Virus record (IMG/VR): IMGVR_UViG_3300033144_003548
Origin: a virus
Length of the DNA: 64,000 nucleotides
Reading direction: 5' to 3' (one strand)
A model generated the notes under the pieces. The model was not told the origin of the DNA and searched no databases. It was given only the letters and a program-made list of their open reading frames with translations. This document shows, piece by piece, positions 17,962 through 47,751 of the stretch (positions are counted from its first letter, which is position 1; every line of letters starts with the position of its first letter). The translations under genes were made by a program, and so were the position numbers.

Positions 17962-17971
17962 AACCTCTCCT

Positions 17972-18673: not shown

Positions 18674-18688
18674 ATCCTCTCCTTTATT

Positions 18689-19378: not shown

Positions 19379-19486
19379 TTTAAACTCCTTTGTGTTTTTT
19401 ATACTAAGCTTCTGAACCTCTCTCCCGCCTAGTTAGGATTATTCGAGGGGAGGGAATTTAGCCCTCCCCATTTACATCAGCTTCGA

Positions 19487-20416: not shown

Positions 20417-20477
20417 CTTTACTCCATTATTGGGGAGGGAGACTATCCCTCCCCGCCTACTCTATTTTTTTCAAAGG

Positions 20478-21029
20478 TTATCCAGTTTTGATAGTTAGTT
20501 CGCCCTTTGTGCTGTTAAACTCAAATACGATACCAACCTGTCCACCAGTTCCCTTATACCATTTACCACCAGACTTAACACTGATTCCATCACCCACATC
20601 AAATGAAGAGCCAGTGTAACAGCCAGATGTAACAGTGTAGATGCCATCATCATAAGCCAGCATCAACGCACCAGATAGAATTGTCTGCTCAGGACTCTTT
20701 AATCTAGGTGCAACCATTCTCAACTTTACGTCAGCAGGAAGATTCTCCTGTCCCTCTGGATACTCTCTCAAGGTATAAGGCTGAGATGTAGTATTACCAG
20801 TCTCATCAAGAGTTGGTAGAGACTCGTAAATAGGAGGTTTCTCATTGTAAACCCTGAACGCAGCTACGAAATGAGCAGCAGTATCATCATCGGCAGTAGG
20901 AAGTTGAGCACCCTGAACCACATCAGGGCTTGATTTGCCCGTAGCAGGAACAAGCTTCACAGCAAGCCCCGCCTGTATATCTTCCTGTGCAACGCAAGGA
21001 ATTGCTGTTCCTTGTAATTTAATTTCCAT
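20478..21029 (-). CDS. Head decoration/cement protein
   Basis: AQEDIQAGLAV...GIYTV...VGDGI pattern; between scaffold and capsid. Confidence 0.65.
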   Translation of the reverse strand: MEIKLQGTAIPCVAQEDIQAGLAVKLVPATGKSSPDVVQGAQLPTADDDTAAHFVAAFRVYNEKPPIYESLPTLDETGNTTSQPYTLREYPEGQENLPADVKLRMVAPRLKSPEQTILSGALMLAYDDGIYTVTSGCYTGSSFDVGDGISVKSGGKWYKGTGGQVGIVFEFNSTKGELTIKTG

Positions 21030-21052
21030 TATTTCTTACTCCTCTTAACAGT

Positions 21053-21994: not shown

Positions 21995-21996
21995 TT

Positions 21997-22620
21997 TTAT
22001 TTCACTCCAACAATTTGTTTTCTTCTCTTTAGCTCATCATCAATGGCTTTAATCATATCGAATGAACTAATAGAAACTAACGGTGTTCTACCCTCATAAG
22101 CAGGTGACTTGACCGCCGTTATTGCTTTAGTAGTAGTTCCAACTAACCACTCTACATCATCTTCCATTGAAGAGTCTTTGTATCTAATTTCCCACGAAAA
22201 GTTAACTGCCCTACCTTCGGATGTTTCTTTTTTGAAGAATTCAACAACATCAGGGAACTCATCATTATACAATGCACCAATAGCCACTACTTTATTTCCC
22301 TCTTGCTGACCCTCTTTCAAAACACCGATTTGAACAGCACCAGCGTGTCCTTGAACATCCGCCTCTTCAGGTTCATAATTTGCCTTAATAGGCATATATG
22401 ACATAGATTTGATCAGATTTGGAAACTCGTCTTGTCTTATGCCCTGGTTATTAGCATTAGGTTGATCATCAGCAAAAACGAGCTTGATCCAGGTTAGAAG
22501 AGGATTCTTATACTCGTCTGGAATTCCAGCCTCTGCCAAATTTTCAACAAATGCCAATGTCGTATTAAATGTTGCTTCTTTCATATTATTCCCACTCCCT
22601 CGGATTTGTATCCCATCCAT
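21997..22620 (-). CDS. Prohead protease
   Basis: NANNQG, GH, FSWE, PAY motifs; likely start MKEATF. Confidence 0.75.
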   Translation of the reverse strand: MDGIQIRGSGNNMKEATFNTTLAFVENLAEAGIPDEYKNPLLTWIKLVFADDQPNANNQGIRQDEFPNLIKSMSYMPIKANYEPEEADVQGHAGAVQIGVLKEGQQEGNKVVAIGALYNDEFPDVVEFFKKETSEGRAVNFSWEIRYKDSSMEDDVEWLVGTTTKAITAVKSPAYEGRTPLVSISSFDMIKAIDDELKRRKQIVGVK

Positions 22621-23086
22621 ACAGTCTACCGTATTTTGGTCGTGCCAGTTTCTTACCTGGTAATAACATATCTAATTCTCTAACATCATCTTCCAATGTA
22701 GAACTTCTTTGTCGTGCCGATTCAATATTAGAATAAGCGATCTCCTCATCCCGCCAACTAGCAACGTCACCCGATTCGGAAAATTTCTTTCCACTTTTTA
22801 TCATTACAGACGCTTGCAATACTATTGGTCGTCTATCTCTGTGTTGAATTACTGGTGGTGAAGACCAATCAAATGTTACGTTAGGATTCCTGTGAACCAC
22901 ACCTTCATTATCCACATAATACATATCATCCCACCTACGCATCAACGCAGCTACCGCTTCCCTCAAGACCATATGAAGATACTCGTCAGAAAATGTCGGA
23001 GTTGGGTCATTGTCTCCGATCTGAACTCTTAGAGGTATGATTAATTCTTCTAAATTGGATGTCTTAAATGCCATTTTCACCACCAA
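22586..23086 (-). CDS. Head-tail adaptor protein
   Basis: LRVQIGD...FSDE motif typical of adaptors. Confidence 0.65.
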   Translation of the reverse strand: MVVKMAFKTSNLEELIIPLRVQIGDNDPTPTFSDEYLHMVLREAVAALMRRWDDMYYVDNEGVVHRNPNVTFDWSSPPVIQHRDRRPIVLQASVMIKSGKKFSESGDVASWRDEEIAYSNIESARQRSSTLEDDVRELDMLLPGKKLARPKYGRLYGWDTNPREWE

Positions 23087-23140
23087 AATTATACTTAGAA
23101 ATGTGTCCTACAAATTTCTGACTACCTATGTCCTTCGCTA

Positions 23141-23407
23141 TCAAATTGTCTCCTTAACTTCCACCACCTGTCTTGAGGTAAATGTTTCTTGACCGACTAC
23201 GTAATCAAAATCAATTACATATACACCGATCTCATCAGGTTGCCACAAGCAATGCACAGTTTGATCTTGAACTCCACCAACACCACTGGCAACAACGCTC
23301 TCATCTTCCGTGTCATAGATTGTATATGTAACACCAGATATAGTCAAAGGAGCACTGCTAACAACTGCGTATGCGTATCTCTTTTCTCCGATAGTCCAAG
23401 GTTTCAT
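23141..23407 (-). CDS. Small Ig-like structural protein
   Basis: Beta-strand pattern, GVYVIDFDY. Confidence 0.55.
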   Translation of the reverse strand: MKPWTIGEKRYAYAVVSSAPLTISGVTYTIYDTEDESVVASGVGGVQDQTVHCLWQPDEIGVYVIDFDYVVGQETFTSRQVVEVKETI

Positions 23408-23503
23408 TAGTCCTCTATTTCCTCCACATTCTTATATTACACTTCCCCAAGAGGCACTCTATAAGTACCGTCTAACTTATCAATAGGCATTTACGCCCTC
23501 TAC

Positions 23504-23540
23504 TATATATATTACCATTTTTTGGGCGTTTCTTCCCAAA
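23504..23540 (-). promoter_or_regulatory. Candidate phage-specific (late) promoter TTTGGGAAGA-N9-AAAATGGTAATATATATA, copy 1
   Basis: Identical bipartite motif also at 41845-41881; both intergenic. Confidence 0.6.
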
Positions 23541-23574
23541 TAACGGCTAGGTTAATTTTAACGAAACTTCTAAA

Positions 23575-24720
23575 CTAAGAAATAAAAGATAATCTACCAG
23601 AATTTGCCCTAACCAAAGTCTTATATACCTTATTCGCTACAACCTTCCAAGAGAATTTATCACGCATACTTTGCTCTAGTGCTTCGTTGCCTCTTAAAGC
23701 TAGAAACTCTCTGTCTTTATACAACAACTCTAACTTATCAGCAAGACTATCCTCACTGATAACTCCACCAATAAAAGACGTTCCTGCTAAATACTCCTCA
23801 CGAGCTATGTCTATAAACTCCGCTCCCTGAGTCCATATATCCTTTAAATTGCCGTGTGGTGGGCAGAGGACTGGAACAGCACAAGCAGCACCTTCGATTA
23901 AGGATAAACCAAAGCCCTCCCCAAGAGAAGTATTAACATTCACATCCATTATATTGTAGAGCATATTAATCTTCTCAAAATCCAAAGGTGAGCCACTTAG
24001 TATGGTCTTATCGGAGATATTAAAATCCTTAACAAGAGTTGGAAGATCGTAAGCTATATCCTTGTTTGTTGCGTGAATCAAACATTTTACATCGTTCTTA
24101 CCCTTAGCAAACTTGGCGAAACCCGATAAGAACAAATCTAGTCTCTTTCTATATGTATTGGTATTGTTATTGCCAACAACAAAAAGCCCCTCTACACCTA
24201 AGCTGGCTTTGGCATCAGGAATCTTAAAGAAGACAGAAGGAGCAACACCGTGATAAATAGCTGTAACATCAAGGTTAGGGTTTATCTCTTCAACCTTCTT
24301 CTTAGAGTAGTCGGTATAAGTCATAACTGATTCGATACCATATCTAGAGAATTCCAACATCCTACCAGCATCAATAGGTAAGAGATTAACAGGAAACAGA
24401 GGAACAATTCGTGGTGGTGATGCTAAATCATTTAATAGCGTTCCCAAATACTTTTCGATTATGTGGTCATCATTGAACAGCACAACTACATCAGGAGTTT
24501 CTTCCTTTATAACAGTAGATAAATAATCAAAGGAATACATATCACCTAGTGCAGTCTGTGCTGGATAGATATAGTATGGATAAGGATGTCTCTTCCTACC
24601 ATCATATCTAATACCGTACACTATTAATTCACACTTTGTATAGAGTTCATTACATATGTTGTGCGTAACTATACTAAATCCTGAATTTACGATAGCATCA
24701 CCAACCCACAAAACCTTCAT
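23575..24720 (-). CDS. GT4 (GT-B) glycosyltransferase, paralog of 16660
   Basis: KVLWVGD, SGF, HGV, RKRLDLFL, GEGFGLSLIE. Confidence 0.92.
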   Translation of the reverse strand: MKVLWVGDAIVNSGFSIVTHNICNELYTKCELIVYGIRYDGRKRHPYPYYIYPAQTALGDMYSFDYLSTVIKEETPDVVVLFNDDHIIEKYLGTLLNDLASPPRIVPLFPVNLLPIDAGRMLEFSRYGIESVMTYTDYSKKKVEEINPNLDVTAIYHGVAPSVFFKIPDAKASLGVEGLFVVGNNNTNTYRKRLDLFLSGFAKFAKGKNDVKCLIHATNKDIAYDLPTLVKDFNISDKTILSGSPLDFEKINMLYNIMDVNVNTSLGEGFGLSLIEGAACAVPVLCPPHGNLKDIWTQGAEFIDIAREEYLAGTSFIGGVISEDSLADKLELLYKDREFLALRGNEALEQSMRDKFSWKVVANKVYKTLVRANSGRLSFIS

Positions 24721-24731
24721 AATTCCTCTCC

Positions 24732-25250
24732 TTATATCGTGTTAGGACCCCAGGTAATTCTCCTATGTTGAGGTGACCTCTTAATATTAGGAACTTTGGT
24801 AACTATTTCTCTCTCTTCCGATTCACCTTTAACGGGTTCGTATACAGTCACACGCTTCACCTCAACTGCTGAATCCCAATCAACGGTCACGTCATCGCCA
24901 GACATTGACCAGTTAACTTTATACATCTTTGCTCCCTTTTCAACAATGATATAATCATCAAAAACGTCTGCAACCCAAGGTCCCGTAGGTGGTGATTCAA
25001 CGATCTGAGATGGACCCATAATAGCCTCACGAATCTTCTTTTCAAGCTCCCAAAGCTCTTCTCTCATACTAAGCTCAGCATCCTCTTCCTCACTCTTTTT
25101 CACTTTCCAATTATTCTTTTTTAACTGAGCCTTGCAAATAGCAATTGCACGACTCTCTGGATATTTAGGGTTAGATTCCATTACAGACTCTACACACCTC
25201 TCCATCCATCTAGTCTGCTCAGGCTTTTCATTAGGTATTCCATATGGCAT
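24732..25250 (-). CDS. Putative head-associated protein
   Basis: MPY...WMERCV...AIAIC motif common in phage head genes. Confidence 0.55.
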   Translation of the reverse strand: MPYGIPNEKPEQTRWMERCVESVMESNPKYPESRAIAICKAQLKKNNWKVKKSEEEDAELSMREELWELEKKIREAIMGPSQIVESPPTGPWVADVFDDYIIVEKGAKMYKVNWSMSGDDVTVDWDSAVEVKRVTVYEPVKGESEEREIVTKVPNIKRSPQHRRITWGPNTI

Positions 25251-25253
25251 TTT

Positions 25254-25358
25254 TTACTCATCCTCCCTAAAGATTAAAGGGGTAAATTCGGTGCATCCAC
25301 ATTCGCACTCTTCTACCTCATCACTAACAACTCTGTGGCATTCATTACATACTTTCAT
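25254..25358 (-). CDS. 34-aa Zn-ribbon microprotein
   Basis: Own translation MKVCNECHRVVSDEVEECECGCTEF...; ATGA overlap with upstream gene. Confidence 0.55.
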   Translation of the reverse strand: MKVCNECHRVVSDEVEECECGCTEFTPLIFREDE

Positions 25359-25936
25359 CTCAGTATCAAACAAACTCTACGATTGTCATCAACCAAATCT
25401 TTCCTTGCCACTTCAAACCCATCTAGAAGATAATTCAGTGTTTCATCGTTATAAACACGCATCCAATTATCTCCCCACCTAGATTTATCCGCTCTCCAAT
25501 TACCGTAAGGAATGGTAACAAACATAAAACCACTATCAGTCAGAAGCTCTCTACTAGCAATTAAAGCTTGCCTATCACCCCCCTCGTCAATCCAAGTATT
25601 ATGATAAGCCTTCAAACCGATGTGTTCAAGACTAGACATAAAAATAATGTCATCAAACTTTACATCAAACGAATAATCTCTAATGTCACCGATAACGAAG
25701 TTATACTTTTTATCAGAAAAGTCACCCCAACAAGATCTCTCATTTATATCTATACCCCAAACCGTTTCATAATAGCTAACTAAGAAGTCAGCCAATCTAC
25801 TCTCCTGACAACCGACATCAAGAACACACCCCTTATATCTTATATTTTCTAAAATCCACCTAAGCTCTGGAACAGTCCCCGCATTAAAATTGCCTTTTAT
25901 TGGGTATTTAGCCACAAGCTCAGAATATTTATCCAT
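25355..25936 (-). CDS. Class I SAM-dependent methyltransferase
   Basis: VLDVGC, GID, FDDI, SSLEHIG. Confidence 0.85.
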   Translation of the reverse strand: MDKYSELVAKYPIKGNFNAGTVPELRWILENIRYKGCVLDVGCQESRLADFLVSYYETVWGIDINERSCWGDFSDKKYNFVIGDIRDYSFDVKFDDIIFMSSLEHIGLKAYHNTWIDEGGDRQALIASRELLTDSGFMFVTIPYGNWRADKSRWGDNWMRVYNDETLNYLLDGFEVARKDLVDDNRRVCLILR

Positions 25937-26669
25937 TCTTTCTCCAAAACAGAGAAGCTGACGTGAAGTTCACTGGTCTGGACGGAAAGTGCGTCCTGCC
26001 CCTCAGATACTCTGGTTCTAAATTTTTTGGGTTACTGCTTTGATAAGTATTCACTGGTTCTACTACAAGTAAACCAACCTCTTTCTCGATAATCTCCAGT
26101 ACATTGTTATCAAAGTACAGGATGTTACCAAATTTAATAATCTCATTAGTAGGTTCTAAATTCCACTCTGTAGTCATCCCACAAACACCACCAACTTTAA
26201 GAGTTCTTTTTATCTCTTTGAAGCACTGTAGAATATCTGGTAGCTCACCTATGTGCTCTACCGATGATGAACTCCAAATTACATCAAAAGTATTGTCCTC
26301 GAATTCGATGTGCTTCATATCCATTGGCATAACAGTCAATCTGGCTCTATCATAGGGAATTTTATTAAACCTATAAATTTGTTCTGGTGTATAGTTGTGC
26401 TTCCCCCAAAACTTACTGGGATAATAGGCTATATCAGTGGCATAAACGTGACCAAAATAATTAGCAAGCAAGAAAATAAGTGGTTCTCTCAAACAACCCA
26501 GTCCTAAAGCAATCTTCTCGTTACCAAAGCACCTCAATCTCTTAAAACCATAGCTTAATATGAAATTCTCCCAACTTTTCCTACGAACCCCAAACGTTGC
26601 AAATTCTCTAACTTCATTAAACTCTGGTGAAGAGAAATCATCGTAATCAAAAACTTTATTTAGGTTCAT
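25929..26669 (-). CDS. Class I SAM-dependent methyltransferase
   Basis: LGLGC, FDVIWSSSSVEH, RTLKVGG. Confidence 0.85.
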   Translation of the reverse strand: MNLNKVFDYDDFSSPEFNEVREFATFGVRRKSWENFILSYGFKRLRCFGNEKIALGLGCLREPLIFLLANYFGHVYATDIAYYPSKFWGKHNYTPEQIYRFNKIPYDRARLTVMPMDMKHIEFEDNTFDVIWSSSSVEHIGELPDILQCFKEIKRTLKVGGVCGMTTEWNLEPTNEIIKFGNILYFDNNVLEIIEKEVGLLVVEPVNTYQSSNPKNLEPEYLRGRTHFPSRPVNFTSASLFWRKNG

Positions 26670-27981
26670 TTAATCCGCTCTCTAATACTTCCAGTACCTT
26701 AGCTATGCTACTATCACTTATAACACTGGGTGGTTTTATTTTGAGAACATTACCTAGTCCAGCGTGCTTATCACAACCAAACACGACACCACCTTTGTAG
26801 ATACCATAGTCAATAACTTTCTGCACCTTCTCTGGATATGGTTCTTTGGTATCTGGATTTTTAACTAGCTCAACACCAATAAGCAATCCTTCCTGTCTAA
26901 TATCACCAATTATAGGATACTTCTCTTGAAGCTTAATGAGTTCGGATTCAAATATTTTACCTTTCTCATCAGCTTGCTCACATATCTTCTCTTCCTCTAT
27001 GATTTTTAGGGCTTCTATACCAGCAACCATACTTAATGGGAAACTAGCAAATGTAAATGTTTGATCACCACCCCTAAAATCGAACTCATCTCCGTATAGT
27101 GTAGCTGCAAGAGGAAATCCTCCACCCAGTGCTTTACCAACTGTCATAATATCTGGTTTAAACCCATAGTAATCTGCTGCAAACAGCGAACTCAACTTAC
27201 CAAAGGCGGTTTGCATCTCGTCTGCAACCATAATAACACTATACTTATCACACAACCCACGCAACAACCTGTGATATTCGTACGGAAATGTTATTTGCCC
27301 ACCATTACCTTGAATGGGTTCATATATAATAGCACTTGGTCTCTTTTTTGAAAATATCCTCTCAGTTTCTTCTAAGCATTCGTAACTACAGCTACCTCTA
27401 GATTTACCAAATTTACACCTGTAGCAATAAGGACTTGGTAATCTTACAACCTCAGTTTTTAAAACATCAAATTCTGGTTTTTCCTTATAATCCCAACTCA
27501 ACGAACCAGTTGCTAAACTCCTCCCGCAAAACCCAGTATCAAGAACCGCTATCGGTGATTTAGGGTACTTTATTAGAATTAGCTTTATTGCTCCCTCAAC
27601 TGCAAGAGAACCGTGCAGACAGAAATTTACTTTGGTTAAATTGTCTGGTACGATATTAATTAACTTATAAGCTAACTCTAATTTAGGAATTGTATAATAA
27701 CTGGGACGGATGTGAACAAGTCCGCTATCCATTGTCTTCTTGACCGCTTCTATAACTCTAGGATGACTATGCCCAATTGTAGCCGTCCAGCCTTGGGAGC
27801 AACAATCAACATACGAATCTCCCCACTCGTCATATATAAACTCTCTTTCTGCACGAGCAATAACAAAGAACCTATCTAAGTCACCAGCACTGGCAACACC
27901 CAATCTCTTTTTAGGCTCTTTAAGAATTTCTAAGTCTATCGCTTTATTCCTGCCAATTTGGTGAAAATCTATCGTAGTCAT
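26656..27981 (-). CDS. Class III PLP-dependent aminotransferase
   Basis: IGHSHP, GSLAVEGA, EPIQGNGG, DEMQTAFG, PDIMTVGKALGGG; likely start MTTIDF at 27981. Confidence 0.9.
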   Translation of the reverse strand: MTTIDFHQIGRNKAIDLEILKEPKKRLGVASAGDLDRFFVIARAEREFIYDEWGDSYVDCCSQGWTATIGHSHPRVIEAVKKTMDSGLVHIRPSYYTIPKLELAYKLINIVPDNLTKVNFCLHGSLAVEGAIKLILIKYPKSPIAVLDTGFCGRSLATGSLSWDYKEKPEFDVLKTEVVRLPSPYCYRCKFGKSRGSCSYECLEETERIFSKKRPSAIIYEPIQGNGGQITFPYEYHRLLRGLCDKYSVIMVADEMQTAFGKLSSLFAADYYGFKPDIMTVGKALGGGFPLAATLYGDEFDFRGGDQTFTFASFPLSMVAGIEALKIIEEEKICEQADEKGKIFESELIKLQEKYPIIGDIRQEGLLIGVELVKNPDTKEPYPEKVQKVIDYGIYKGGVVFGCDKHAGLGNVLKIKPPSVISDSSIAKVLEVLESGLNEPK

Positions 27982-29038
27982 ATCTCTTCTCCATAGCAGG
28001 TGCTCTGGTAATTTCCATACCAAACCTGCGATAAAAGTCTTCTTTCCCAGGGTCAGCAATCAAGAATACTTTGATTGGGTTAAGCATCTCAGCTTTCCTG
28101 AACAACTCCTTGACAATAGTAGTTCCTACCCCAATACCTTGATAGGCAGGTCTTACCATAACATCCCAAATAGCAACTGCATAAGCACCATCTGTAAAAT
28201 ATCTTCCAGAACCAATAACCCTACCATTTCTCCTCACCACTGCAAAGGTGGAATTTTTAATGATGGTGCTGTCTCTTTCAAGATTACGCATACTCAGATG
28301 TAAACCACCAAACTCCCCCATATCCTTATAAAGAGAATTAAGCTCCTTTAGAGTGATACTATCACCAAGCTCCAGTTCGGGTGCGTCAAACATTTTCTTT
28401 GCTTGTTCATACTCCTCTGGAGTATCTATTTCCATCCAGTCATACCTAACAAATTCTGGTATTGCGTGAAAGGAACTAATGTGCTTACGAACTATGGACA
28501 CCAACTCCTCTTTTTCCACATTGTTAAGTTGTTTTGCCAGCCTTCTCACAAACTCTGGAGGATAAACTGCCAGTCCAAGCATCACACAGTAATCATATTC
28601 ACGACCAATATCAGTAATTCTATTATTGAAGTCTACTTTTATACCAAGCTCACCTGGACTCCAATGGTGCTTTAGGTTGTCAACAAAATATTGGAACTTC
28701 GGTTGAATGTCAAAGTAGATACGGTAATCTAACATTAGATCACCATCCACGCAGATAACAAAGTCCTCAGTTCCACATTTATCTAAGGCTAATTTGAAAC
28801 TATAAGCATTTCCTGTAGTCTCAAATCTATCGTTACGAACATACTCTACTGAATCTCCAAAATCGGGGAGCATCTCACTTTTGTAGCCAGTGACCACATA
28901 AACTTTATCAACCCCAATATCCCTTAGACCAGTAATCTTATGTTCTAGTATTGTCTTACCATCTAATTTTAGCAGTGATTTGGGGAAATCAATTCCCATT
29001 CGTGAACCCTTACCTGCTGCTAATATTATTGCTTTCAT
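27944..29038 (-). CDS. Nucleotidyl(cytidylyl)transferase (LicC-like) fused to GNAT acetyltransferase
   Basis: MKAIILAAGKGSR..PK, DGD, WMEIDTPE; C-terminal DVMVRPAYQGIGVG...FYRRFG. Confidence 0.88.
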   Translation of the reverse strand: MKAIILAAGKGSRMGIDFPKSLLKLDGKTILEHKITGLRDIGVDKVYVVTGYKSEMLPDFGDSVEYVRNDRFETTGNAYSFKLALDKCGTEDFVICVDGDLMLDYRIYFDIQPKFQYFVDNLKHHWSPGELGIKVDFNNRITDIGREYDYCVMLGLAVYPPEFVRRLAKQLNNVEKEELVSIVRKHISSFHAIPEFVRYDWMEIDTPEEYEQAKKMFDAPELELGDSITLKELNSLYKDMGEFGGLHLSMRNLERDSTIIKNSTFAVVRRNGRVIGSGRYFTDGAYAVAIWDVMVRPAYQGIGVGTTIVKELFRKAEMLNPIKVFLIADPGKEDFYRRFGMEITRAPAMEKRYDYDRFSPNWQE

Positions 29039-29675
29039 TATCTAACCTCATTACATAAACTCTATCCCACACCATATCAACTAATCTCTTCGCTTTAAGA
29101 CTATCACTAATCTTCTGTTGAAGCAGACTGTCCACAGGTGCTAATAGTTTTATCCACTCCTCACGTGGTCGAAGATTTATATGAGTAGGATCACTTTTTC
29201 CTCGACCAATCGTTAGAACTGCCTTGCTAGTCCCAATTCTCCTAATTTCTCTGATTGCTTGCTCGGTAAGTTCGGGTGGCAAATGTTCCATTACTTCCAA
29301 GCAAACTACCAAATCAAAAGTGCTATCATCAAATCTTGATAAGTCGGTCATAGAACCTTCAATTATCAAATCACGAACTGGTGATTCACGGATCATAAAA
29401 TCAGCTATCTCTACACCGATAATGTCTATATCAAGTTGTTTAAATCTCTCTACATCAAACCCTATGCCACACCCTAATGAAATAGCTTTTTTAGGTTTGC
29501 CATAGAACTCCACAATAGTATCAACTATTTTATGATTGTATGGTCTATATCTGTTGAAGTAGCTTTTCTTAGTAAACGTCCCTCCTCCACCACCTACACC
29601 CTTCGCCCCCCAATAAGCATACTCCTCATTAGCTACCACAGAGTACTTGTCAGTATCTACACCAAACTTATCCAC
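29010..29675 (-). CDS. Class I SAM-dependent methyltransferase
   Basis: SLGCGIG, FDLVVCLEVMEH, DPTHIN. Confidence 0.88.
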   Translation of the reverse strand: MDKFGVDTDKYSVVANEEYAYWGAKGVGGGGGTFTKKSYFNRYRPYNHKIVDTIVEFYGKPKKAISLGCGIGFDVERFKQLDIDIIGVEIADFMIRESPVRDLIIEGSMTDLSRFDDSTFDLVVCLEVMEHLPPELTEQAIREIRRIGTSKAVLTIGRGKSDPTHINLRPREEWIKLLAPVDSLLQQKISDSLKAKRLVDMVWDRVYVMRLDNESNNISSR

Positions 29676-30612
29676 AAATTTCCTCTATCTTATCAACTAT
29701 CTTTTGCGTTGACTTACCATCACAATATCCAAGAGCTTTCTCTACCCAATATTCTCTTCTCCCTTTATACTTGTCTGAGTTGGCTAAACTACTCTCTACT
29801 GCTTGTTTAAGACCCGACAAATCGTCACGAGAAACTATCTCACCGAGATCAAGACTTTCAGTCATATTTTCTTTAGCTATCTTCAAGTAACTAGGATATT
29901 GAGGATTATCAATTAACACAATTGGTTTATCAAGAAGAGCAAACTCAAAAACCAGACTAGAAACATCTCCTATAAGCAAATCACAACCCAAGAGATAGTC
30001 AAACTTCCTATCATAATTAGACGCAACCTTCAAATGATATTCATATTTGTTCTTATAACTACACATTTCGTGAGGCATAAAAATTACATTACAATTAGGA
30101 AGCGATTTCACAATGTCCATAAGCTTATCGGCATTGCCAGGTGGTTGAGATGTGTTACTTTTGGTATAGGTAGGAGCAAACAAGATCAGAGGTTTATTAT
30201 CTGCTATCCCGTGACACCTCTTGACAAACTCCTTAAATTCGTGTTGTTTACTCTTATTGTTTATGTAGTAATCTGCCTTGGACCACCCTAAACCAAGAAT
30301 ATTGCCACGCAAGTTATCTTCAAAAAACTTGCTCGGAACAATTACGTAATCCCATTCAGGGTACTCTTGTGCCCAGTTCTTTATGAATGAGACTCCGTGA
30401 AAAATGAGAAAAGAAGGCTTAATAGGAGGTTTTTTGCAAATCCAACTTCCAGTTTGACACCCCAAACTACCTCTAACATTCTTGTCTATATTGTAACTAC
30501 TTGCTTTACCAGCTATAACCACCCAACCTCGCTTCCTCAACTCATCTTCAATAGGACTAAGAACTAGATCGTACTGAGTAAAGTCACGGATTATCTGGAA
30601 CTTCTTCTCCAT
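29668..30612 (-). CDS. CDP-glycerol glycerophosphotransferase (TagF/TagB) family transferase
   Basis: FHG...K, GWSKAD, LFAPTY, PH, D.LIGDVSS..FEF..LDKP; likely start MEKKFQ at 30612. Confidence 0.85.
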   Translation of the reverse strand: MEKKFQIIRDFTQYDLVLSPIEDELRKRGWVVIAGKASSYNIDKNVRGSLGCQTGSWICKKPPIKPSFLIFHGVSFIKNWAQEYPEWDYVIVPSKFFEDNLRGNILGLGWSKADYYINNKSKQHEFKEFVKRCHGIADNKPLILFAPTYTKSNTSQPPGNADKLMDIVKSLPNCNVIFMPHEMCSYKNKYEYHLKVASNYDRKFDYLLGCDLLIGDVSSLVFEFALLDKPIVLIDNPQYPSYLKIAKENMTESLDLGEIVSRDDLSGLKQAVESSLANSDKYKGRREYWVEKALGYCDGKSTQKIVDKIEEICG

Positions 30613-32056
30613 CCCTTTCACTCCTACCAAAACCACCACCAGGTGAAGAGAATGGAACGAATGGAGCTTCACGGATATTCTTCTCCTTGTAGTCCTGATC
30701 TTCCTTAGCAATTCTCTCCATCTCAGTAGCTTGATCAATACCTTGCAATTGGAGTCTAGTCCTCCTTGACATAGAACCCTCTCTATACAAATCCCTTGTA
30801 ATAATATTCAGGTCAACTAAACTGTATAATCTCATTGGTGTAAAGGCTGGAACAGGGGCATTCTTAAAACTATTCTTCTCCTTTATCTCATCGTATAGAT
30901 CCACAGTCCAAGCAAGAAGTTTAGACCTAATCGCCTCAAGAGTAGCGATAGGTGAAAAAGTAGCAATGTCAGAACCACCCTCAACGTTTGACCTTAAAGT
31001 TTCACCAGTAATTAGTGTACGAGGAAAGCCAAAACCAGCAATAATGTCATCATCAACTGTACTGTACTTCTCTCTGTTCAGCATAGCTGCGGTATCAGGA
31101 GCTACCCACTCAATAGTTAGAGTGTGGTTAGCAAAAAGCTGGAAAACCTTCTCAACCTGACCCTTTGCAGTTCTATAGTTCATTTGACTCTTAATGTAAT
31201 CAAAATCTTTGTCGTCTGTCACAGGAAAATCATCACTACCAAGTTTTATCAATTGGATAGCAGCGATAACTCTCGCTGCAATAGAATAATCCATTTTCCT
31301 CAAATTTCTCTTGTGCATCAAAGCCTCTAAAGCGTTTGTCATATATGGAATAGGATATGGATCTTCTGGCAAACATCTTGACAGAATCGGTCTTACGTTC
31401 TCCAAAAGGATTTCGACCTTAGTTCCTCTTTGATTCTGAATCGCTTTAACAAATTCAGGGTAATTGTCTACAAAGGCTTGATACGTTTCCTTATCTACAG
31501 ACCCGTCTGGTCTTTTCCCTTTGTTCTTGATGAACTGAACAGTCTCTGAACTAACCTGAACATAATAATCTTTTCTGTTTGGAATAGGAGACGATTTAAC
31601 TGTTATAGTAGCGGGGTCTCTAAACCAAATATTATCGGGGACCCAAACCCTCGTTCTTGAATTTAGAAGAGGAGTCAACTTTGCACCACTAACTCTTGCC
31701 CACTCATAATGAGGCACAACTAGACCAGATAGCAGATATTCCAAGCAAACGTTTCTGTAGAATTCTTCAAGCATACTATGTAAAGACTCATAAACGGCAA
31801 ACTCTTCGTCAGTACATTGAGCTTTTTGATTCATTAAAGGAGAAATCGCAAAGTCTACCATTTTGTTTGTCACAGTACCAGCAATTGGGTCGTGCTTATA
31901 AAAGAAACGACACATCTTGATTAAATCCTTATATTTCTTTGGTAGTTCCATATAATCAACAACACTACCAAAGACAGTGCCTGTCTGATTAGGATCATCA
32001 AGTAAATTAACTGATGCTTGTGCCAGTTTTAAATTCTTTTTAGTTGTTGCTGCCAT
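30584..32056 (-). CDS. Portal protein
   Basis: 490 aa directly after terminase; CRFFYKHDP, GFPR. Confidence 0.8.
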   Translation of the reverse strand: MAATTKKNLKLAQASVNLLDDPNQTGTVFGSVVDYMELPKKYKDLIKMCRFFYKHDPIAGTVTNKMVDFAISPLMNQKAQCTDEEFAVYESLHSMLEEFYRNVCLEYLLSGLVVPHYEWARVSGAKLTPLLNSRTRVWVPDNIWFRDPATITVKSSPIPNRKDYYVQVSSETVQFIKNKGKRPDGSVDKETYQAFVDNYPEFVKAIQNQRGTKVEILLENVRPILSRCLPEDPYPIPYMTNALEALMHKRNLRKMDYSIAARVIAAIQLIKLGSDDFPVTDDKDFDYIKSQMNYRTAKGQVEKVFQLFANHTLTIEWVAPDTAAMLNREKYSTVDDDIIAGFGFPRTLITGETLRSNVEGGSDIATFSPIATLEAIRSKLLAWTVDLYDEIKEKNSFKNAPVPAFTPMRLYSLVDLNIITRDLYREGSMSRRTRLQLQGIDQATEMERIAKEDQDYKEKNIREAPFVPFSSPGGGFGRSERDGEEVPDNP

Positions 32057-40706: not shown

Positions 40707-40710
40707 TTTG

Positions 40711-41040
40711 TGGAGGTGGGGGAGAGTCGAACTCCCCGTCCAGACCGATCTAATATACACTTTCTACAAGTTTATTTACTTTGCATCTTAGCAACACTAC
40801 TAAGTAACAACTCGTGTTGAGCATCCAGCATTTTTAAGCTGAGACTGGAATTAGCTCTTTTTCCGCCACTGAACGGTCTTCCAAGAGAGTCGTAGCGGGA
40901 GTCTCATCTAGGAAGAGTAATCCTTCTTGCAGGACTACGAATAAATTAGGTTTGCCAGTTATTGGCTTTTGCTATTTATAGTCTTTGCCGACTACTTGCT
41001 TATGTATATCAACATCACCCTGTCGAAGCCACGCACCCCC
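40711..41040 (-). ncRNA. ssrA: Phage-encoded tmRNA
   Basis: 5' GGGGGTG pairs with 3' CACCTCC-A (G3-U70); TTCGAC D-loop analogue; T-arm GGGAG-TTCGACT-CTCCC; helix 2; pk1; TAACT-GGC resume context; CCA not encoded. Confidence 0.93.
40834..40956 (-). CDS. tmRNA tag reading frame (A)GKPNLFVVLQEGLLFLDETPATTLLEDRSVAEKELIPVSA
   Basis: Resume codon GGC 5 nt after the conserved UA; 40 codons to TAA. Confidence 0.75.
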   Translation of the reverse strand, partial: GKPNLFVVLQEGLLFLDETPATTLLEDRSVAEKELIPVSA

Positions 41041-41896: not shown

Positions 41897-42446
41897 CTAT
41901 ATCTGGAGATTTTCGGCGTGAAGTTGTTCCCAAGTATGTATCAAGTTCATATCACTCTCAGATAGGTATTTTTGGGCTTCTTGTTGCATCAGGCGGAATC
42001 TACGAGTTAACCATATAGAAGGAAGAGCAAGTAGATTATCTCCGTATTCTAGCAGGTTTTCCTCTTTCCAAGTCCTAACCAAAGCACACACGCTGTCAGC
42101 ACGTATAGCTAATCTGCACGTAATCCATTGACCTACGTTAAGGTGATAAACAGACGTATATATCCAGAGTTCTCCGTCAAAAGGACACCCCTGTAACCAC
42201 GCCTGGGCATTGGTGACTTCACTTAACGTTTCGTCACTTAGCACAAGACGATAAAAATTATCTGGATCTAAGCACGCTAGGATCGTTCTCATCAAACTCC
42301 AAAGCAATATAATTACATTCCGATTGACCATATTCAAGGTCATCACGTTGAGATAGAGCTATTGACTTAGCTTCTGCTGGATTATCAGCATCAACATTAA
42401 TCTCAGCCTTCCCACTCACCTTATATATATGAATATGAAATCTCAT
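41897..42446 (-). CDS. Two hypothetical proteins (41897-~42292; 42258-42446)
   Basis: ORF track. Confidence 0.5.
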
Positions 42447-42604
42447 CTTGCCTCCCTGCAAAGAGAAAACTCTTTTTTCTTTACTTTCAGGGTTCTATCC
42501 TTAGTAGTATAACATCTGAATCTCAGCACGCACACATCACACTGTTCATTACAAGGAACGGCGCAATTCCCGCCGTGTAGCTTTAAATATAACCCTCTTC
42601 TCAT
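42443..42604 (-). CDS. 53-aa Cys-rich protein (CxxCxxRFxCYT)
   Basis: Own translation MRRGLYLKLHGGNCAVPCNEQCDVCVLRFRCYTTK...; near-leaderless after promoter. Confidence 0.65.
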   Translation of the reverse strand: MRRGLYLKLHGGNCAVPCNEQCDVCVLRFRCYTTKDRTLKVKKKEFSLCREAR

Positions 42605-42613
42605 TCTGTTATT

Positions 42614-42642
42614 ATTATAACATATTGAGGGTTAATTGTCAA
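42614..42642 (-). promoter_or_regulatory. Sigma-A promoter driving left arm
   Basis: TTGACAATTAACCCTCAATATGTTATAAT. Confidence 0.85.
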
Positions 42643-42927
42643 GCCCTGTTGTAACGAAGGTGCAAGATGTATTGCTACGTGCTACCTTTTGCACGCAGGC
42701 TGAAAACTTTGAAAAATTGTCTAGACCAGTACGGGGATCACAACGTGGCGGATTATGTAAAGTAGGGGCGTTTTTTATGTAAACTAGGCGGGGGTTAAAA
42801 CTGGCGTGCTCTGAGACACTCTATAATCAAAATCCTGCCCGTTTTATCAATATGGGTATATTATACCAGTGAGAATTTACCACGCCCAAAAATCGCTTAA
42901 AATCGCTTAAAATCATACTCTAGGGTA

Positions 42928-42957
42928 TTGACAAGTAAAATAATTCTATGGTAAAAT
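42928..42957 (+). promoter_or_regulatory. Sigma-A promoter of the GGC/GCC-free gene
   Basis: TTGACA-18-TAAAAT with extended -10 TG; additional TATAAT at 42962. Confidence 0.7.
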
Positions 42958-43164
42958 TAGGTATAATTAAATAAGGTGGTATTGAGAATGAATGAATAAA
43001 CAAAGCTAGGTGTAAAGCTAAGAGTAAGCACCACAAAGCTATCAGTGGAGACACTGAATCCAGTTTGCTATACTGGTAATAAGTGGAGTAACAGAGATAA
43101 ACTCCAGTGTAACAGTAACAAAACTGTAAAACAATCTCAAAACTAAAATTGAGGTGATTATACA

Positions 43165-43872
43165 ATGTCTAACGAAATGGACAAGTCAACAAGCGGTAAC
43201 ACGGTAATTATATCTTCAACCGTTCTCGGTCAAAAAAGAGCTGAATATCAGCGACTTAAAGACAAGGGAATTGCTGAGGATAGAATAACCGAGAGAATGA
43301 CCGAGGATGCTCTCCAGTTCGGTATCACTCTTGAGAATTACCAGACACAGCTAAACAATCTCAAGAGCAAGTCAAGCGGTGGTGAGCAAATCGAGGAAAA
43401 GAGGAAAGAGCATACCGCTAAACTACAAAGCGAATTCCTTGACTACCTCGGTTATGCAAATGGGGTTACTCAAGTTGACTGGAAAAAAGTTCAGTTCAGC
43501 AAGGATAACTTCAAAAAGCTGGTAAAATTCCTTGCTGGTATGGGTGAAGCAACCGACAAGCTGATAACCTCACTTCAGAATACTGAATTTACACAGAAGA
43601 GGGGTAAACAAGCGTGGATGGTTATGCTTCACGCACCAGTCCATAATCACATCACGGATAAACCGACCAATACAAAGTTACTTGCTCCGTTTTGTGGTGG
43701 GTGGACTGATAAGGGTAGGTCGTATGACCAGTACGGTATCCGTATGGAAGCGTCTGGAGCAGCGACTTTTTACCGACCAGTTAGCTATGAGACTCCAGTA
43801 AAGACCACTGGACTTGAAGCACCAGCAAGCGATAATCCAGAGACTCCAGAGAATACCGACAATAAGAGCTAA
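43165..43872 (+). CDS. Hypothetical (candidate pre-early) protein, paralog of 47215
   Basis: GAGGTG RBS; own promoter; N-terminal similarity to 47215. Confidence 0.85.
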   Translation: MSNEMDKSTSGNTVIISSTVLGQKRAEYQRLKDKGIAEDRITERMTEDALQFGITLENYQTQLNNLKSKSSGGEQIEEKRKEHTAKLQSEFLDYLGYANGVTQVDWKKVQFSKDNFKKLVKFLAGMGEATDKLITSLQNTEFTQKRGKQAWMVMLHAPVHNHITDKPTNTKLLAPFCGGWTDKGRSYDQYGIRMEASGAATFYRPVSYETPVKTTGLEAPASDNPETPENTDNKS

Positions 43873-43942
43873 TCAGTCAAGGGTAAGGGTAGGGTAGTAA
43901 TACCCTACCCTACCCACTAAAAAAAACAAAGTGAGGTCAATT

Positions 43943-44086
43943 ATGTGTGAGCATTGTAATTTAGTCAATTGTCCAGTACTCAACAAAGCTGAATGTCCTA
44001 TCAATATCTTGTGGGCTGAGGCAGACAGGATAAGGGCAGAGACTGAGGCGGCAATCAAAGAGGCTGAGGCAATTATCGGCGACTGA
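43943..44086 (+). CDS. 47-aa Cys-rich protein
   Basis: Own translation MCEHCNLVNCPVLNKAECP...; GAGG RBS. Confidence 0.6.
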   Translation: MCEHCNLVNCPVLNKAECPINILWAEADRIRAETEAAIKEAEAIIGD

Positions 44087-44094
44087 GTAATTAT

Positions 44095-44128
44095 TGGGGC
44101 GGCTGAATAAGTCGCCCCACTTTTTTTA
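44095..44128 (+). terminator. Rho-independent terminator
   Basis: TGGGGCGGCT-GAATA-AGTCGCCCCA followed by T7. Confidence 0.85.
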
Positions 44129-44277
44129 TGCCCAAAAAGCAACATTATGTCAACTTTACATATAATTTATAGTGCGATCCAAGTTAGCTTCAAATTGAGC
44201 CTAAAAAGCTACTTTATGTAAAGTAGAGCCTAAAATTCACGCTCAAAGTGGGTCGCACTATCTACTATATGTCAAGT
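44128..44277. repeat. Cluster of four dif-like (XerC/XerD) 28-bp sites
   Basis: 11-6-11 sites with WTATGTMAAST arms; GGATCGCACTA/GGGTCGCACTA arms in inverted orientation. Confidence 0.6.
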
Positions 44278-44288
44278 AAAGCATCAGT

Positions 44289-44431
44289 GGCAAATGAGCC
44301 AGCGTGCCTGAACGCCAATTCTGGCAGATTCGCCAATAGCCTGAACGGCAAATAAGCCTGTATGCCTGAACAATGTGCCTAGAGCCTTGCCTGAACTGCC
44401 GTTGATGGCGAATAAGCCAAAAAGCCTGAAC
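44289..44431. repeat. Interleaved GCCTGAAC (x5) and GGC-N6-GCC (x4) repeats
   Basis: GCCTGAAC at 44306, 44339, 44364, 44389, 44424; palindromes at 44289, 44323, 44347, 44407. Confidence 0.85.
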
Positions 44432-44592
44432 AGCACGCCACAGAGCAGGAGCAAGGTAAGTTGGTGGCAGGATTTCAAATCGAGGTTACTCTCAGGCAGA
44501 TTTACCAGATGGGGGTAACAGAGCCAAAGCCAAAAGGCACGCCAAAGCTGCTGGCAGAACAACCAGCAACTCTGAACGTGCCTCGTTAGAGA

Positions 44593-45196
44593 CTAATTCA
44601 GGTTAAGCCATCCACGCTCTTCAGCAGGGATGGGGTCGCCAAAGTGGTCGTAGTCAGAACACCTCTGACAAATGCCGAACTCTAGGGTATCACCCCTAGC
44701 TGCCCTCAAAGTGTCAATCGTTCCATCTTTTCTCTGAGACAGCTTATGTCCAGCAGCACAAGCCACTTTGTCTCCCTGACATCTTGCGTTACCGCACTGC
44801 CAGAGACTCCTCATTAGTCACCTCCTTCGGCTTGATAGTGTCTTGGAAACTCAGCAGCCAGGTGCGATGCTTCCAGTTACGAGGATTGTCGGGGTCAGCG
44901 TGAGGAGTCTTGAGACAATATCCCTGCCGAGTAATCAGCAGAGTGCAACCACAAGACAATCCTTCAACTGAGTGCATCCTATCAGGCTGAAAGTTCCGAG
45001 TCAGCACCACTACTTCACCGTGAGTCGGACAAGTTCGGGTCAAGGCGTGGAATTTTACCACTTTCGCAGTAAACTCCATCGCAGGCGGAGCACTCTGCGA
45101 CTTTTTCTTGAAAGTCCACAGCCCGTTGTCGTCAAGCTCAAGGTCTGGATGTGGTGCTTCTGGATTAAGAGGAATAGTCTTGACTTCGCCGTGCAT
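44593..45196 (-). CDS. Two Cys-containing hypothetical proteins (44593-44814; 44789-45196)
   Basis: AAGGAG RBSs; downstream of promoter 45227-45255. Confidence 0.65.
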
Positions 45197-45226
45197 CTCG
45201 CTCACTCCTTTCTCTAGACTACCTCT

Positions 45227-45255
45227 ATTATACCATCGCCTTGTGTAAATGTCAA
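45227..45255 (-). promoter_or_regulatory. Early sigma-A promoter, GGC class
   Basis: TTGACATTTACACAAGGCGATGGTATAAT. Confidence 0.88.
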
Positions 45256-45468
45256 GTGTTTTGAGATGCCACGCAAAAATTTTTTCGCAGGCAAATCTGC
45301 CGATCAAGCCAAGCCGAACAGAACTCAGGCAAGTGTGCCAGGGCATAGAACGGGAGCGGTAGGCAACTCGCCCAACGCTCCCTTTGTTTAGTAATTAAAA
45401 ATGCCAATATAGTAACAGTCTTTATTTAATCGGCGGTCTAATCCTCCTTTCCTAGATTTGGCTCGCAG

Positions 45469-45983
45469 TTACTTGACTTTAACTACGATGCCATCCCTCA
45501 CCTCAACCTGAGCATACCACCTGTGAGGCTCAGGGTAATGAGGACCCTCAACGAACTCAGTGCCGTTTTGCTTGGGAGAACCAAGTCCTGGGGAATAGAG
45601 TCTGACCTCTTTCCCACTGGCGACTGCTTCCTTGAGTGCTTTTTTGGTCTTGAAGTTAGTATCAGTATACATTAGCCACCTCCTTCTTAGTGTGTTGGGT
45701 CTGAGCCATCTTCGGGGATACCGTTTACCAGCATAAAGTCCCAATGCTCTTTGAAGACTTTGCTGCCAGCGTTGTGCTTCCGATTGCACTTTTTGCAGAA
45801 GTAAGACTTGATGGTAGCTTTCTTAGCCATCTCCTCAGCAACAGCTTTGTCAACTGCTGCCTGACGCTCTAGGAGCATCTGACGAGTTGGGTGTGCCGCA
45901 TACCAATCTTCCTTCTTCCACAATCGACCATCTCGGAAGATGATGCCCGACTCTGCTCTAGCTCTATCCTTTGCTCGGCTCAT
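45469..45983 (-). CDS. Two hypothetical proteins (45469-45672; 45687-45983)
   Basis: RBS GGAGG; downstream of promoter 46020-46048. Confidence 0.7.
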
Positions 45984-46019
45984 CGGTTTTGCTAACCCCC
46001 TTTCCTCTAGGATACTTCT

Positions 46020-46048
46020 ATTATAGCAACGCCTTTGTTAAAAGTCAA
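46020..46048 (-). promoter_or_regulatory. Early sigma-A promoter, GGC class
   Basis: TTGACTTTTAACAAAGGCGTTGCTATAAT. Confidence 0.8.
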
Positions 46049-46294
46049 GGGGGAAAATGTACGCCAGAAGTTCACGCTCAAAATAAGGGCAAAACTGCCC
46101 TCAAATTGCCGATTAGGCGTCTCAGAACAGGTGGCTATACATTACGCCTAATGGCAAGCCAAACTGCCTCTTCGGCAAATCTGCCAAAAGGCTGAACAGG
46201 CTGCCATAAAGACAGCCTGTTAGCTCGGCGGGTGCGTGGCTAAGAAGTCCGAATCTGCCCTCTTACCATATTTCAGGTTATCAGTTCCGAGCCA

Positions 46295-46712
46295 CTACCA
46301 CTTAATCCACTTATCTTCTGGCTGAGCGTAGATAAGTGCCCTCATCGCTGGTTTATAGCCAGCTTTGAGTCCAGCCTCTCTCAGAACTTCGAGAGCCTCC
46401 GCTTTACCTTCGGCTTTGCGGAGATTGGCTTGTGCTTCTTTGAGATACTGGATGGTTTCCTCTTTATCCATTCTCTCCATTAGATGCCTCCTTCACTTTG
46501 AATAGGGTTACCTTGTTCTGCCCAGTTCTACGAAGGATGTAGTCTTTCTTGTTGCCTTCAAGTTCACATACCACCTCAACAGGGGTAAACGAACCATCCC
46601 GCTTGCCAAGTCCTTCAATAACCATACTATCACCTCCATTATCTAGTATAGCATCGCCTGCGTTTAATGTCAAGTAGGTCTTAGAGGCAAAAGGGATGTC
46701 GGTGCGTGGCAA
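46295..46712 (-). CDS. Two small hypothetical proteins (46295-46480; 46464-~46625)
   Basis: ORF track; hairpin AACAGGCTG/CAGCCTGTT downstream at ~46195-46221. Confidence 0.6.
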
Positions 46713-47129
46713 ATCAGCCTAAATACTCTGCTCTCCCACTGGTTCTGCTGTGGCAGAACTGCCGTCCATTCTGTGCGTGGCATTTAATATCACTTCTTAC
46801 TCTTGGCAAAGGCAAATAAAGAGGTAACAGAACCTACGGCAAACTTGCACGTAACGTGGCAAGGCAAGATTTCCTACATAACACTGGCAACGTTACACAC
46901 AGAGTAACGACACGGCGAAAACTTTGAAAATTTCTCGAACACAAGAGAATTGCCATTCAGATCGTTACGTCTCATGGCTTAATTCTGAGATTGTATCTAA
47001 TGTGGCAGTATTCTACAACACTCTAAGCATTTTATGGGAAAGGGATATTCTATGGCAGATATAGGAGTAACAGTGTTATGTTGTGTATGGCAAGGGTGAA
47101 GAATTTACTCCTTCGCCACGCACAAAAGC

Positions 47130-47158
47130 TTGACATTTCCAGTTGGCGATGATATAAT
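47130..47158 (+). promoter_or_regulatory. Early sigma-A promoter, GGC class
   Basis: TTGACATTTCCAGTTGGCGATGATATAAT. Confidence 0.9.
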
Positions 47159-47214: not shown

Positions 47215-47751
47215 GTGGGTAAGACTCAAACAGTCGAAATCCAGCCAACGGTTCTCGGTAGGAAAAATGCCGAGTATGCTCGTCTGCGTGAGAAAGGCAT
47301 CGCAGAAGAGCGTGTTGTTGAGCGGATGGCAGAGGATGCAAAAGTCTTCGGCGTGACTCTTGAGGACTATCAGGGTCGTCTGGCTGAAGTTGGTCGAAAG
47401 ACTGGCGATGGTAAGCGGGCAGCTTTGAAAGCCCGAAAGGAAGCGGTGCAGGCGAAGCATCTGGAAGTCTGTTCGTTTCTGAATGAGGTTATCACCACAG
47501 GTCAGACTGACTTAGCCGCTTTCCAAACCTCTCTTAAAGAGTTGGCTGAGAAAGCTGATGGGTGGGTTCTGATGACCGCCTGTGAGAAGGATGGCTCGAC
47601 TGGGGAAGGCTTGTTTACCATCAATGACTCTGGATGGAATGACGGCAGCAACCGTTCAAACCAGTATTCAGACCGCCCTCAGATGGTGGGTAAGTCGGGC
47701 AAGCACGTTCCTCATCCATTCCTTATCAGGGGCATCGAGCAGGGGAGCTAG
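47215..47751 (+). CDS. Hypothetical early protein, paralog of 43165
   Basis: AAGGAG RBS, GTG start; TVLG.K.AEY.RL..KGIAE.R..ERM.EDA..FG.TLE.YQ shared. Confidence 0.85.
   Translation: MGKTQTVEIQPTVLGRKNAEYARLREKGIAEERVVERMAEDAKVFGVTLEDYQGRLAEVGRKTGDGKRAALKARKEAVQAKHLEVCSFLNEVITTGQTDLAAFQTSLKELAEKADGWVLMTACEKDGSTGEGLFTINDSGWNDGSNRSNQYSDRPQMVGKSGKHVPHPFLIRGIEQGS

Follow-up and report, generated by a model that had tools for sequence, protein, structure and literature searches.

An early phage gene free of the triplet GGC in both orientations, beside an early region with GGC-bearing promoters

The locus and its GGC/GCC-free unit

The 64,000-nucleotide stretch analysed here (the window, to whose first letter positions refer unless stated otherwise) comprises bases 25924-89923 of the virus record IMGVR_UViG_3300033144_003548, a complete phage record of 138,618 bp with direct terminal repeats. 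Its gene map diverges at about 42.7 kb: genes to the left lie on the minus strand, those of the tape measure, terminase, portal, ribonucleotide reductase and transfer-messenger RNA (tmRNA) among them, and on the right the genes are on the plus strand. The subject of this study is the transcription unit of the orphan gene 43165, which stands at this divergence point, where the sign of the guanine-cytosine (GC) skew also switches, and which is contained in a zone (42885-44013, both strands) devoid of GGC and GCC trinucleotides. A reading made from the letters of the DNA only (hereafter the sequence-only reading) had reported the absence of both triplets over 42887-44013; the present count bears this out, with zero sites over the slightly longer zone.

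The unit is composed of a promoter, a leader, the gene and a hairpin, all on the plus strand. The promoter, P42928 (42928-42957), combines TTGACA, an 18-nt spacer, an upstream TG and TAAAAT. It is of the strong sigma-A/70 type, confirms the promoter noted in the sequence-only reading and lacks a GGC element, its spacer being free of GGC and presenting TTC where the class-E promoters of the neighbouring early region (see below) have GGC. The long 5' leader (42965-43164) is a reduced copy of a structured RNA of the relatives, whose leaders measure 200-300 nt and include a conserved structure of about 170 nt with covarying helices, compensatory changes being found in 13 of 27 predicted base pairs. 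The structured leader is located in the related loci at L006:9795-9950, L011:2805-2960, L014:355-510, L021:1425-1585, L020:1935-2100 and L003:9800-9965. No Rfam family was matched by the leader or by the arrays described below, the tmRNA being the sole match, and the leader is considered a candidate new cis-regulatory RNA. The phage-encoded tmRNA itself lies at 40708-41040 on the minus strand (RF00023, 103.9 bits, E = 2.6e-40) and is likewise present in the related loci L003, L006 and L021.

Gene 43165 (43165-43872) encodes a protein of 235 aa without using a single GGC or GCC. The predicted structure of gp43165 (predicted local distance difference test score of 87.5, model built on 39 sequences) begins with three short helices, continues with a long helical hairpin and closes with a small conserved domain at the C-terminus (GGW-DKGR-YDQYG-R...ATFYR). 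No significant Pfam or PHROGs match was obtained for gp43165, its paralog or eight neighbours. Comparisons aimed at the fold or family of gp43165, by Foldseek on two models, a hidden Markov model search of PDB sequences, VIA-align wide and the protein Atlas, were uninformative, the sole fold alignment being to a generic helical hairpin (residues 67-146, Z ~7), and the model had no match resembling Ocr of T7. Directly 3' of the stop codon stands a G/C-rich hairpin (43876-43918), without T-run and also free of GGC and GCC, and a hairpin occupies this post-stop position in the relatives as well. The paralog gp47215 (47215-47751, plus strand, 178 aa) shares about 100 N-terminal residues with gp43165 at 45% identity (E = 4e-22), the relation being full-length by tblastn. 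It had been described as using both triplets normally, and its 19 sites (13 + 6) for about 17 expected agree with this description.

The last site before the zone is a GCC at 42884 and the first after it a GGC at 44014. In a genome-wide check of the kind that the sequence-only reading had suggested, these 1130 bp form the longest GGC/GCC gap of the 138,618 bp, the runner-up measuring 686 bp. About 16 sites are expected in the zone from its own dinucleotide content (9.2 GGC and 6.9 GCC), and synonymous resampling with the genome-wide codon usage predicts 9.8 in the 235 codons of gene 43165, where none is seen. A gap of this length is expected at a frequency of 2e-4 if sites follow a uniform Poisson model; however, that model also yields 5e-4 for a 574-bp gap in the unrelated word GGA/TCC (about 16 sites expected), located outside the window at genome positions 118382-118956, near the second strand-switch point, which indicates a heavy-tailed null. 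For this reason the gap in this genome alone is striking but not conclusive, and its replication in relatives is decisive, since the motif was fixed in advance there.

The flanks had been described as saturated with both triplets. The high counts given for them are confirmed (six sites in 42747-42886 and 26 in 44289-44580, for a genome mean of 14.1 sites per kb), but they are explained by a higher GC content together with arrays of sites: outside the island and the arrays, early genes contain GGC/GCC at 1.0-1.2 of the expectation from composition and late genes GGC at 0.87 and GCC at 0.58 of it, both near composition. Along the rightward arm (window 44000-93000, genome 70-119 kb), the GC content declines smoothly from 0.48 to 0.38 and the GGC/GCC density drops in parallel, from ~40 to ~10 per kb. 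Another short word, GATC, is scarce genome-wide (192 copies, with gaps of about 10 kb at genome positions 91477-101737), which suggests avoidance of a GATC-specific system.

Exclusion and saturation in related genes

A megablast of 42000-46000 against phage records gave no match, and searches of viral_contigs with the gp43165 protein and its alignment retrieved no relatives, the phage being without close relative in the phage or IMG/VR collections. The relatives of gp43165 all originate from metagenome assemblies, with 17 homologs among 5.8 billion proteins and 27 representative clusters among 1.84 billion, and the comparison at the DNA level covers those homologs for which DNA was retrieved. 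Synteny is kept among the related loci, which have ribonucleotide reductase, dUTPase, ClpP and tmRNA on their left side. The large subunit of ribonucleotide reductase, which is the first gene of L006 and L009 and is cut at the locus end, carries an intein there (989 aa, PF14890); that of the window has 679 aa and no intein.

The exclusion of both triplets, which the sequence-only reading had proposed to look for in homologs, is found in ten distinct orthologs of gene 43165. These genes, sharing 55-84% amino-acid identity, hold one GGC/GCC site in total over their coding sequences, GCC being excluded as fully as GGC. Permutation of synonymous codons within each gene, which keeps the codon content and tests the codon junctions alone, gives 27.5 expected GCC and 37.3 expected GGC at junctions, for 0 and 1 observed, with P <= 0.006 in each gene; the runner-up among the depleted junction trinucleotides, TAG, remains at 0.66 of expectation. 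Codon bias alone is ruled out as a cause by this permutation. The leaders and 3' hairpins of the orthologs contain no site either, for about 29 expected, so that the absence of sense-strand GGC covers leader, coding sequence and 3' hairpin. The empty zones extend over 1.0-2.9 kb, beginning 44-330 bp upstream of the -35 element and ending at or after the post-stop hairpin. Two more distant homologs are also devoid of sites, the one with 33% identity over at least 1310 bp and the one with 43% over at least 930 bp, and in some relatives neighbouring genes are empty too, including a third paralog. Codon usage, chance and protein constraint are thus excluded by the ten orthologs and the permutation, and the earlier claim that the protein does not impose the pattern is upheld both by this permutation and by the normal content of the paralog. 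Selection acts to remove the triplet in either orientation.

A sister clade displays the opposite extreme. Its three orthologous genes, which form one clade (99/100 support) among the site-free lineages, carry sense-strand GGC at 34/41, 33/38 and 29/41 of the theoretical maximum (71-87%), with an ordinary GCC content of 9-15. Nearly all their alanine codons are preceded by a codon ending in G, GCT being retained rather than GCC, and their glycine codons are GGC, or GGG followed by C. The neighbouring genes on the same contigs are without such enrichment. The leaders of these genes are short and lack the structured RNA of the empty clade, and their promoter is similar to the P42928 type and likewise devoid of GGC. 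Mutation bias was rejected as a cause, as it could not produce genes so close to the theoretical maximum. An enrichment confined to GGC on the sense strand points to a reading along the direction of transcription or on RNA and not to a symmetric block on virion DNA. In the saturated clade, the array includes, at L016:1487-1720, a run of about ten GGCTTGCC-type units, with GGC/GCC every 5 bp, followed by repeated GGCTGTTCT units.

GGC elements of the adjoining early region

Ten extended -10 promoters between 45255 and 63404, designated class E, all conform to TTGAC-N10-GGC-K-N-TG-N-TAWAMT and carry GGC at -20..-18 in ten cases out of ten (45255, 46048 and 46673 on the minus strand; 47130, 47888, 53764, 56184, 58902, 59653 and 63404 on the plus strand). 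In the relatives the GGC element is kept 5-6 bp upstream of TG, with a one-base shift in some, and is consistently missing from the promoter of the 43165-type gene. The left-arm promoters have TTGACAATT in common and an AT-rich spacer, and are without the GGC element, as is P42928.

The promoters closest to the empty zone are accompanied by further GGC elements. The three leftward ones, each with GGC, have palindromes of the form GGC-N6-GCC or an array upstream: the promoter at 45227-45255 has palindromes at 45290 and 45328, that at 46020-46048 a dense array at 46058-46258, and that at 46645-46673 palindromes at 46708 and 46752. The rightward promoter at 47130-47158, also with GGC, drives the paralog gp47215. 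Ten of the 12 GGC-N6-GCC palindromes of the genome lie within 44289-46763, each leftward early promoter being preceded by two of them. The view that these palindromes are sigma-54 promoters was rejected for wrong spacing. The five densest GGC/GCC windows of the genome are all within 43978-46898, adjoining the empty zone.

On the right, the zone ends inside a small Cys-rich open reading frame (43944-44086, plus strand), whose last 90 nt contain eight sense-strand GGC and no GCC. It is followed by a canonical intrinsic terminator (44095-44119, plus strand), a stem with two further GGC and then a T-run. Next come TTATGT[AC]AAGT repeats and a 29-nt inverted repeat (44128-44277, arms 44153-44181 and 44249-44277), where the GC skew changes sign; this repeat region is a candidate replication origin or control centre. 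The non-coding array that follows (44280-44590) has 26 sites, in GGCAAATAAGCC-type palindromes interleaved with GCCTGAAC units. The TTATGT[AC]AAGT repeats are present on both sides of the gene, at 44128-44277 and 42753-42788, and the left border (42747-42806) includes two TTATGTAAA[GC]T repeats (42753 and 42775) amid four GGCG. The succession of post-stop hairpin, terminator, TTATGT[AC]AAGT-type repeats and a non-coding array of 250-400 bp is retrieved in every related locus with enough flank, the small Cys-rich reading frame before the terminator being present in the closest relatives.

The arrays are oriented. That of the window is GCC-rich on the plus strand, hence GGC-rich on the non-template strand of leftward transcription; this orientation is seen in five loci of the empty clade, and it is flipped in the saturated clade. 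The GGC of the promoters and that of the sister-clade genes also lie on the same strand, the non-template one. A coding origin of the array was considered and rejected, given sites every ~8.5 bp, units of 25-34 bp and no called gene in the arrays of the relatives.

The fixed GGC of the class-E promoters, the clustered palindromes, the dense arrays and the saturated sister-clade gene all support the importance that the sequence-only reading had attributed to the motif. In these phages GGC is a working cis signal of the adjoining early region, next to which the unit of gene 43165, with its promoter, structured leader, orphan gene and 3' hairpin, is a selection-maintained exclusion island for both orientations of the triplet.

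Readings of the triplet and comparison with known systems

The contrast between relatives empty of GGC and a sister group packed with it indicates that natural selection tunes a three-letter signal. That no site at all is tolerated suggests that even one would have an effect, and the occurrence of both extremes in one gene suggests that the motif is tied to this gene or to its product. The fixed position in promoters and the palindromes point to a reading of GGC on DNA, and the sense-only enrichment and oriented arrays to a reading that is polar relative to transcription. From these traits we tentatively prefer the view that a factor reads single GGC sites on DNA, along the direction of transcription, and that the unit is kept blind to it from both sides. 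Two forms of reader are conceivable in the infected cell, host RNA polymerase with a phage protein attached and a phage protein seated asymmetrically on the DNA, and each site would act in some way, for instance as a pause, a roadblock or a switch-off; because of this effect of every site, none would be tolerated on either strand. Polymerases entering the unit from either side would then not be held up, and the unit would stay outside the control acting on the class-E genes. As the extreme motif content is found mainly in gene 43165 and a few neighbours, gp43165 and its paralogs are the leading candidates for the reader, which, by conjecture, would be self-immune in one clade and self-limiting in the other. 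A broader version, possible but somewhat doubtful, would make of GGC a three-letter regulatory code of this phage group, interpreted by a polar reader, possibly gp43165 or its paralogs with the host RNA polymerase. Genes would be tuned from zero sites (insulated and controlled by their leader) to a near-maximal number (self-limiting), and promoters, operators and oriented barrier arrays would all be built from GGC.

Several points weigh against a polar reader on DNA. The candidate reader gp43165 matches nothing in Pfam, PHROGs, PDB or fold searches apart from the generic hairpin, and to our knowledge the total exclusion of a 3-mer is not imposed by ordinary transcription factors. The class-E genes, with 15-18 sense-strand GGC per kb, are presumably still expressed, and an explanation of the GCC exclusion by antisense transcription leans on a weak leftward promoter at 44293 (10/12 matches). 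The strand-specific enrichment also fits a reader acting on RNA equally well.

Such an RNA-level reader, the main rival although we judge it unlikely, would be a phage or host endoribonuclease or RNA-binding protein acting on GGC (perhaps GSC) in transcripts. The site-free mRNA would be immune and long-lived, its processed end shielded by the 3' hairpin, and the GGC-dense 3' regions and the GGC-loaded mRNA of the sister clade would be meant for quick cutting or binding. In its favour, the limits of the empty zone are those expected of a transcript, from promoter to 3' hairpin, the unit has a long structured leader and a hairpin without T-run directly 3' of the stop codon, the enrichment is sense-only in the sister clade and in the 3' half of the small Cys-rich reading frame, and a precedent is provided by genes devoid of, or enriched for, the target motif of MazF-type mRNA interferases (PMC5408214). 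It accounts poorly for GCC, which is excluded equally (0 vs 27.5 at codon junctions) yet not enriched in the sister clade, and for the promoter GGC and the palindromes, which are DNA elements outside transcripts; moreover no RNase-like domain was detected in gp43165, and neither it nor nine neighbouring proteins matched an RNase family in Pfam or PHROGs. The general idea of the sequence-only reading, namely that the motif is read by something to which the gene must stay invisible, is supported. The mechanism that it had put forward, a bulky modification or nick at GGC/GCC on virion DNA that stops the host RNA polymerase, leaving the site-free unit alone readable on entry until its product unlocks the rest of the genome, is partly at odds with the data and appears improbable. 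The total exclusion on both strands fits such a one-hit mechanism, the GGC of every class-E promoter could serve as a lock, on which a modification may act, and GGC-specific DNA modification does exist, DpdA of phage CAjan acting on GA and GGC (PMC7544227). The genome also encodes a weak thymidylate-synthase-like product and a cluster of glycosyl-, glycerophospho- and methyltransferases with an aminotransferase. The former is a 215-aa reading frame with a partial match (genome 20073-20720, minus strand, L023:1495-2142; E = 1.3e-11). The cluster belongs to the head module (window 16660-30738, minus strand), with a TagF-like glycerophosphotransferase, a nucleotidyltransferase-GNAT fusion, three S-adenosylmethionine (SAM) methyltransferases, a class-III aminotransferase and two GT4 glycosyltransferases, and its target may be DNA or the virion. 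Against a modification stands the outcome of searches of the complete genome, in which no DpdA/TGT and no C5 or N4/N6 DNA methyltransferase domain was detected; PF01702 (TGT/DpdA) had no match there although positive controls were matched. Ten near-consensus host-type promoters carry GGC and drive GGC-rich genes, the left-arm promoters are also without GGC, the enrichment is strand-specific, and the sister-clade ortholog is saturated with GGC while having ordinary GCC and a similar promoter.

Evasion of a host defence has been weighed as well, GGC/GCC being in this case the short target of a host system, such as the protospacer adjacent motif (PAM) of a CRISPR (clustered regularly interspaced short palindromic repeats) system or the site of a frequent-cutting nuclease, and the unit a target-free leading region with an anti-defence gene expressed first, like T7 gene 0.3. 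An orphan gene with a strong promoter and the exclusion of both orientations, as would be expected if a target in double-stranded DNA, PAM or cleavage site, were avoided, are in agreement with it, and restriction-site avoidance is widespread among phages (PMC6286503). We nevertheless find it very improbable, as sites occur at 14 per kb in the remainder of the genome, with the densest clusters directly beside the gene, and the motif is maximised in the sister clade. We also know of no three-base restriction target. The chances of a replication signal seem similarly slim: GCC would be the triplet of the replicative primase, the arrays would serve for priming on either side of an origin at 44128-44277 and no priming could occur within the gene. 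Known phage primase sites, such as GTC in T7 and GTT or GCT in T4, are G-Y-N triplets, the lagging-strand template is rich in GCC to the left and right of the repeats and the GC-skew sign switches here; but the genome searches found no DnaG-type zinc ribbon and a sole Toprim match below cut-off, the presumed lagging-strand template is GCC-poor genome-wide, and a priming-free zone brings no evident gain. The defence-evasion and primase-site models fit fewer facts. Chance, codon bias or a context-specific mutation bias, in favour of which one could cite the moderate GCC poverty of late genes (0.58 of expectation) and the heavy-tailed Poisson null of this genome alone, is already refuted: about 130 sites are expected over the ten diverged orthologs (~94 at junctions and in leaders and hairpins, plus ~40 in-frame codons, a usage-based estimate) and one is seen, each gene is significant by codon permutation (P <= 0.006) and the sister clade is near the theoretical maximum.

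The avoidance of a motif as an escape from a sequence-specific agent is of a known kind (PMC6286503; PMC5408214). In the literature searched we found no description that combines a three-base word kept at zero throughout a transcription unit, a push of this word towards its maximum in sister genes and its further use in promoters, operators and oriented arrays. Selection that is able to keep such a word at zero over 1-3 kb in some lineages and at 71-87% of its maximum in the sister clade points to a hitherto unknown activity of very short specificity, for which single sites must matter. Discovery of the reader would reveal a new means by which phages write timing or insulation straight into their coding sequences and would give a function to an orphan gene family; it might also yield a tool of 3-nt specificity. 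The contrast between free and saturated genes is a signature for which other genomes can be screened.

Known systems share part of these traits. In phage CAjan, DpdA introduces 7-deazaguanine modification at GA and GGC (PMC7544227), which is likewise a phage activity aimed at GGC in DNA, but the present genome is without TGT/DpdA homolog and a GGC-free gene is not reported for CAjan. The avoidance of restriction sites and PAMs in phage genomes also consists in a short motif being selected away (PMC6286503). The loss on both strands, relative to composition, that spares DNA from a sequence-specific agent is common to both situations; here, however, the motif has three bases, the loss is limited to one island of 1-3 kb instead of the whole genome, and GGC/GCC is clustered next door and maximised in the sister clade, without known cognate enzyme. 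Gene 43165 can further be compared with T7 gene 0.3 (Ocr) and the pre-early (first-step-transfer) genes of T5, which have host-type promoters, are expressed before or apart from the others and condition the later programme. It resembles them as an early gene with a strong host-type promoter and differs from them by the location of its unit at the divergence point of the map and by its distinctive feature, the exclusion of a triplet. The RegB protein of T4 reportedly cuts GGAG in early mRNAs, a short motif thereby marking early transcripts and shaping timing; unlike in that system, the motif is here another one and is totally excluded on both strands, and no RegB-like protein was found among those scanned. 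The mRNAs lacking or rich in the motif of MazF-type interferases, including ACA-less mRNAs (PMC5408214), differ from the present case in that here the reverse complement is excluded too and GGC is also a promoter and operator element on DNA, with no toxin-like RNase match among gp43165 and the nine neighbours scanned. They resemble it in that single genes stand at the extremes, free of or packed with a motif of 3-7 nt enriched on the sense strand, and in that these extremes decide on the escape from, or the response to, a sequence-specific activity.

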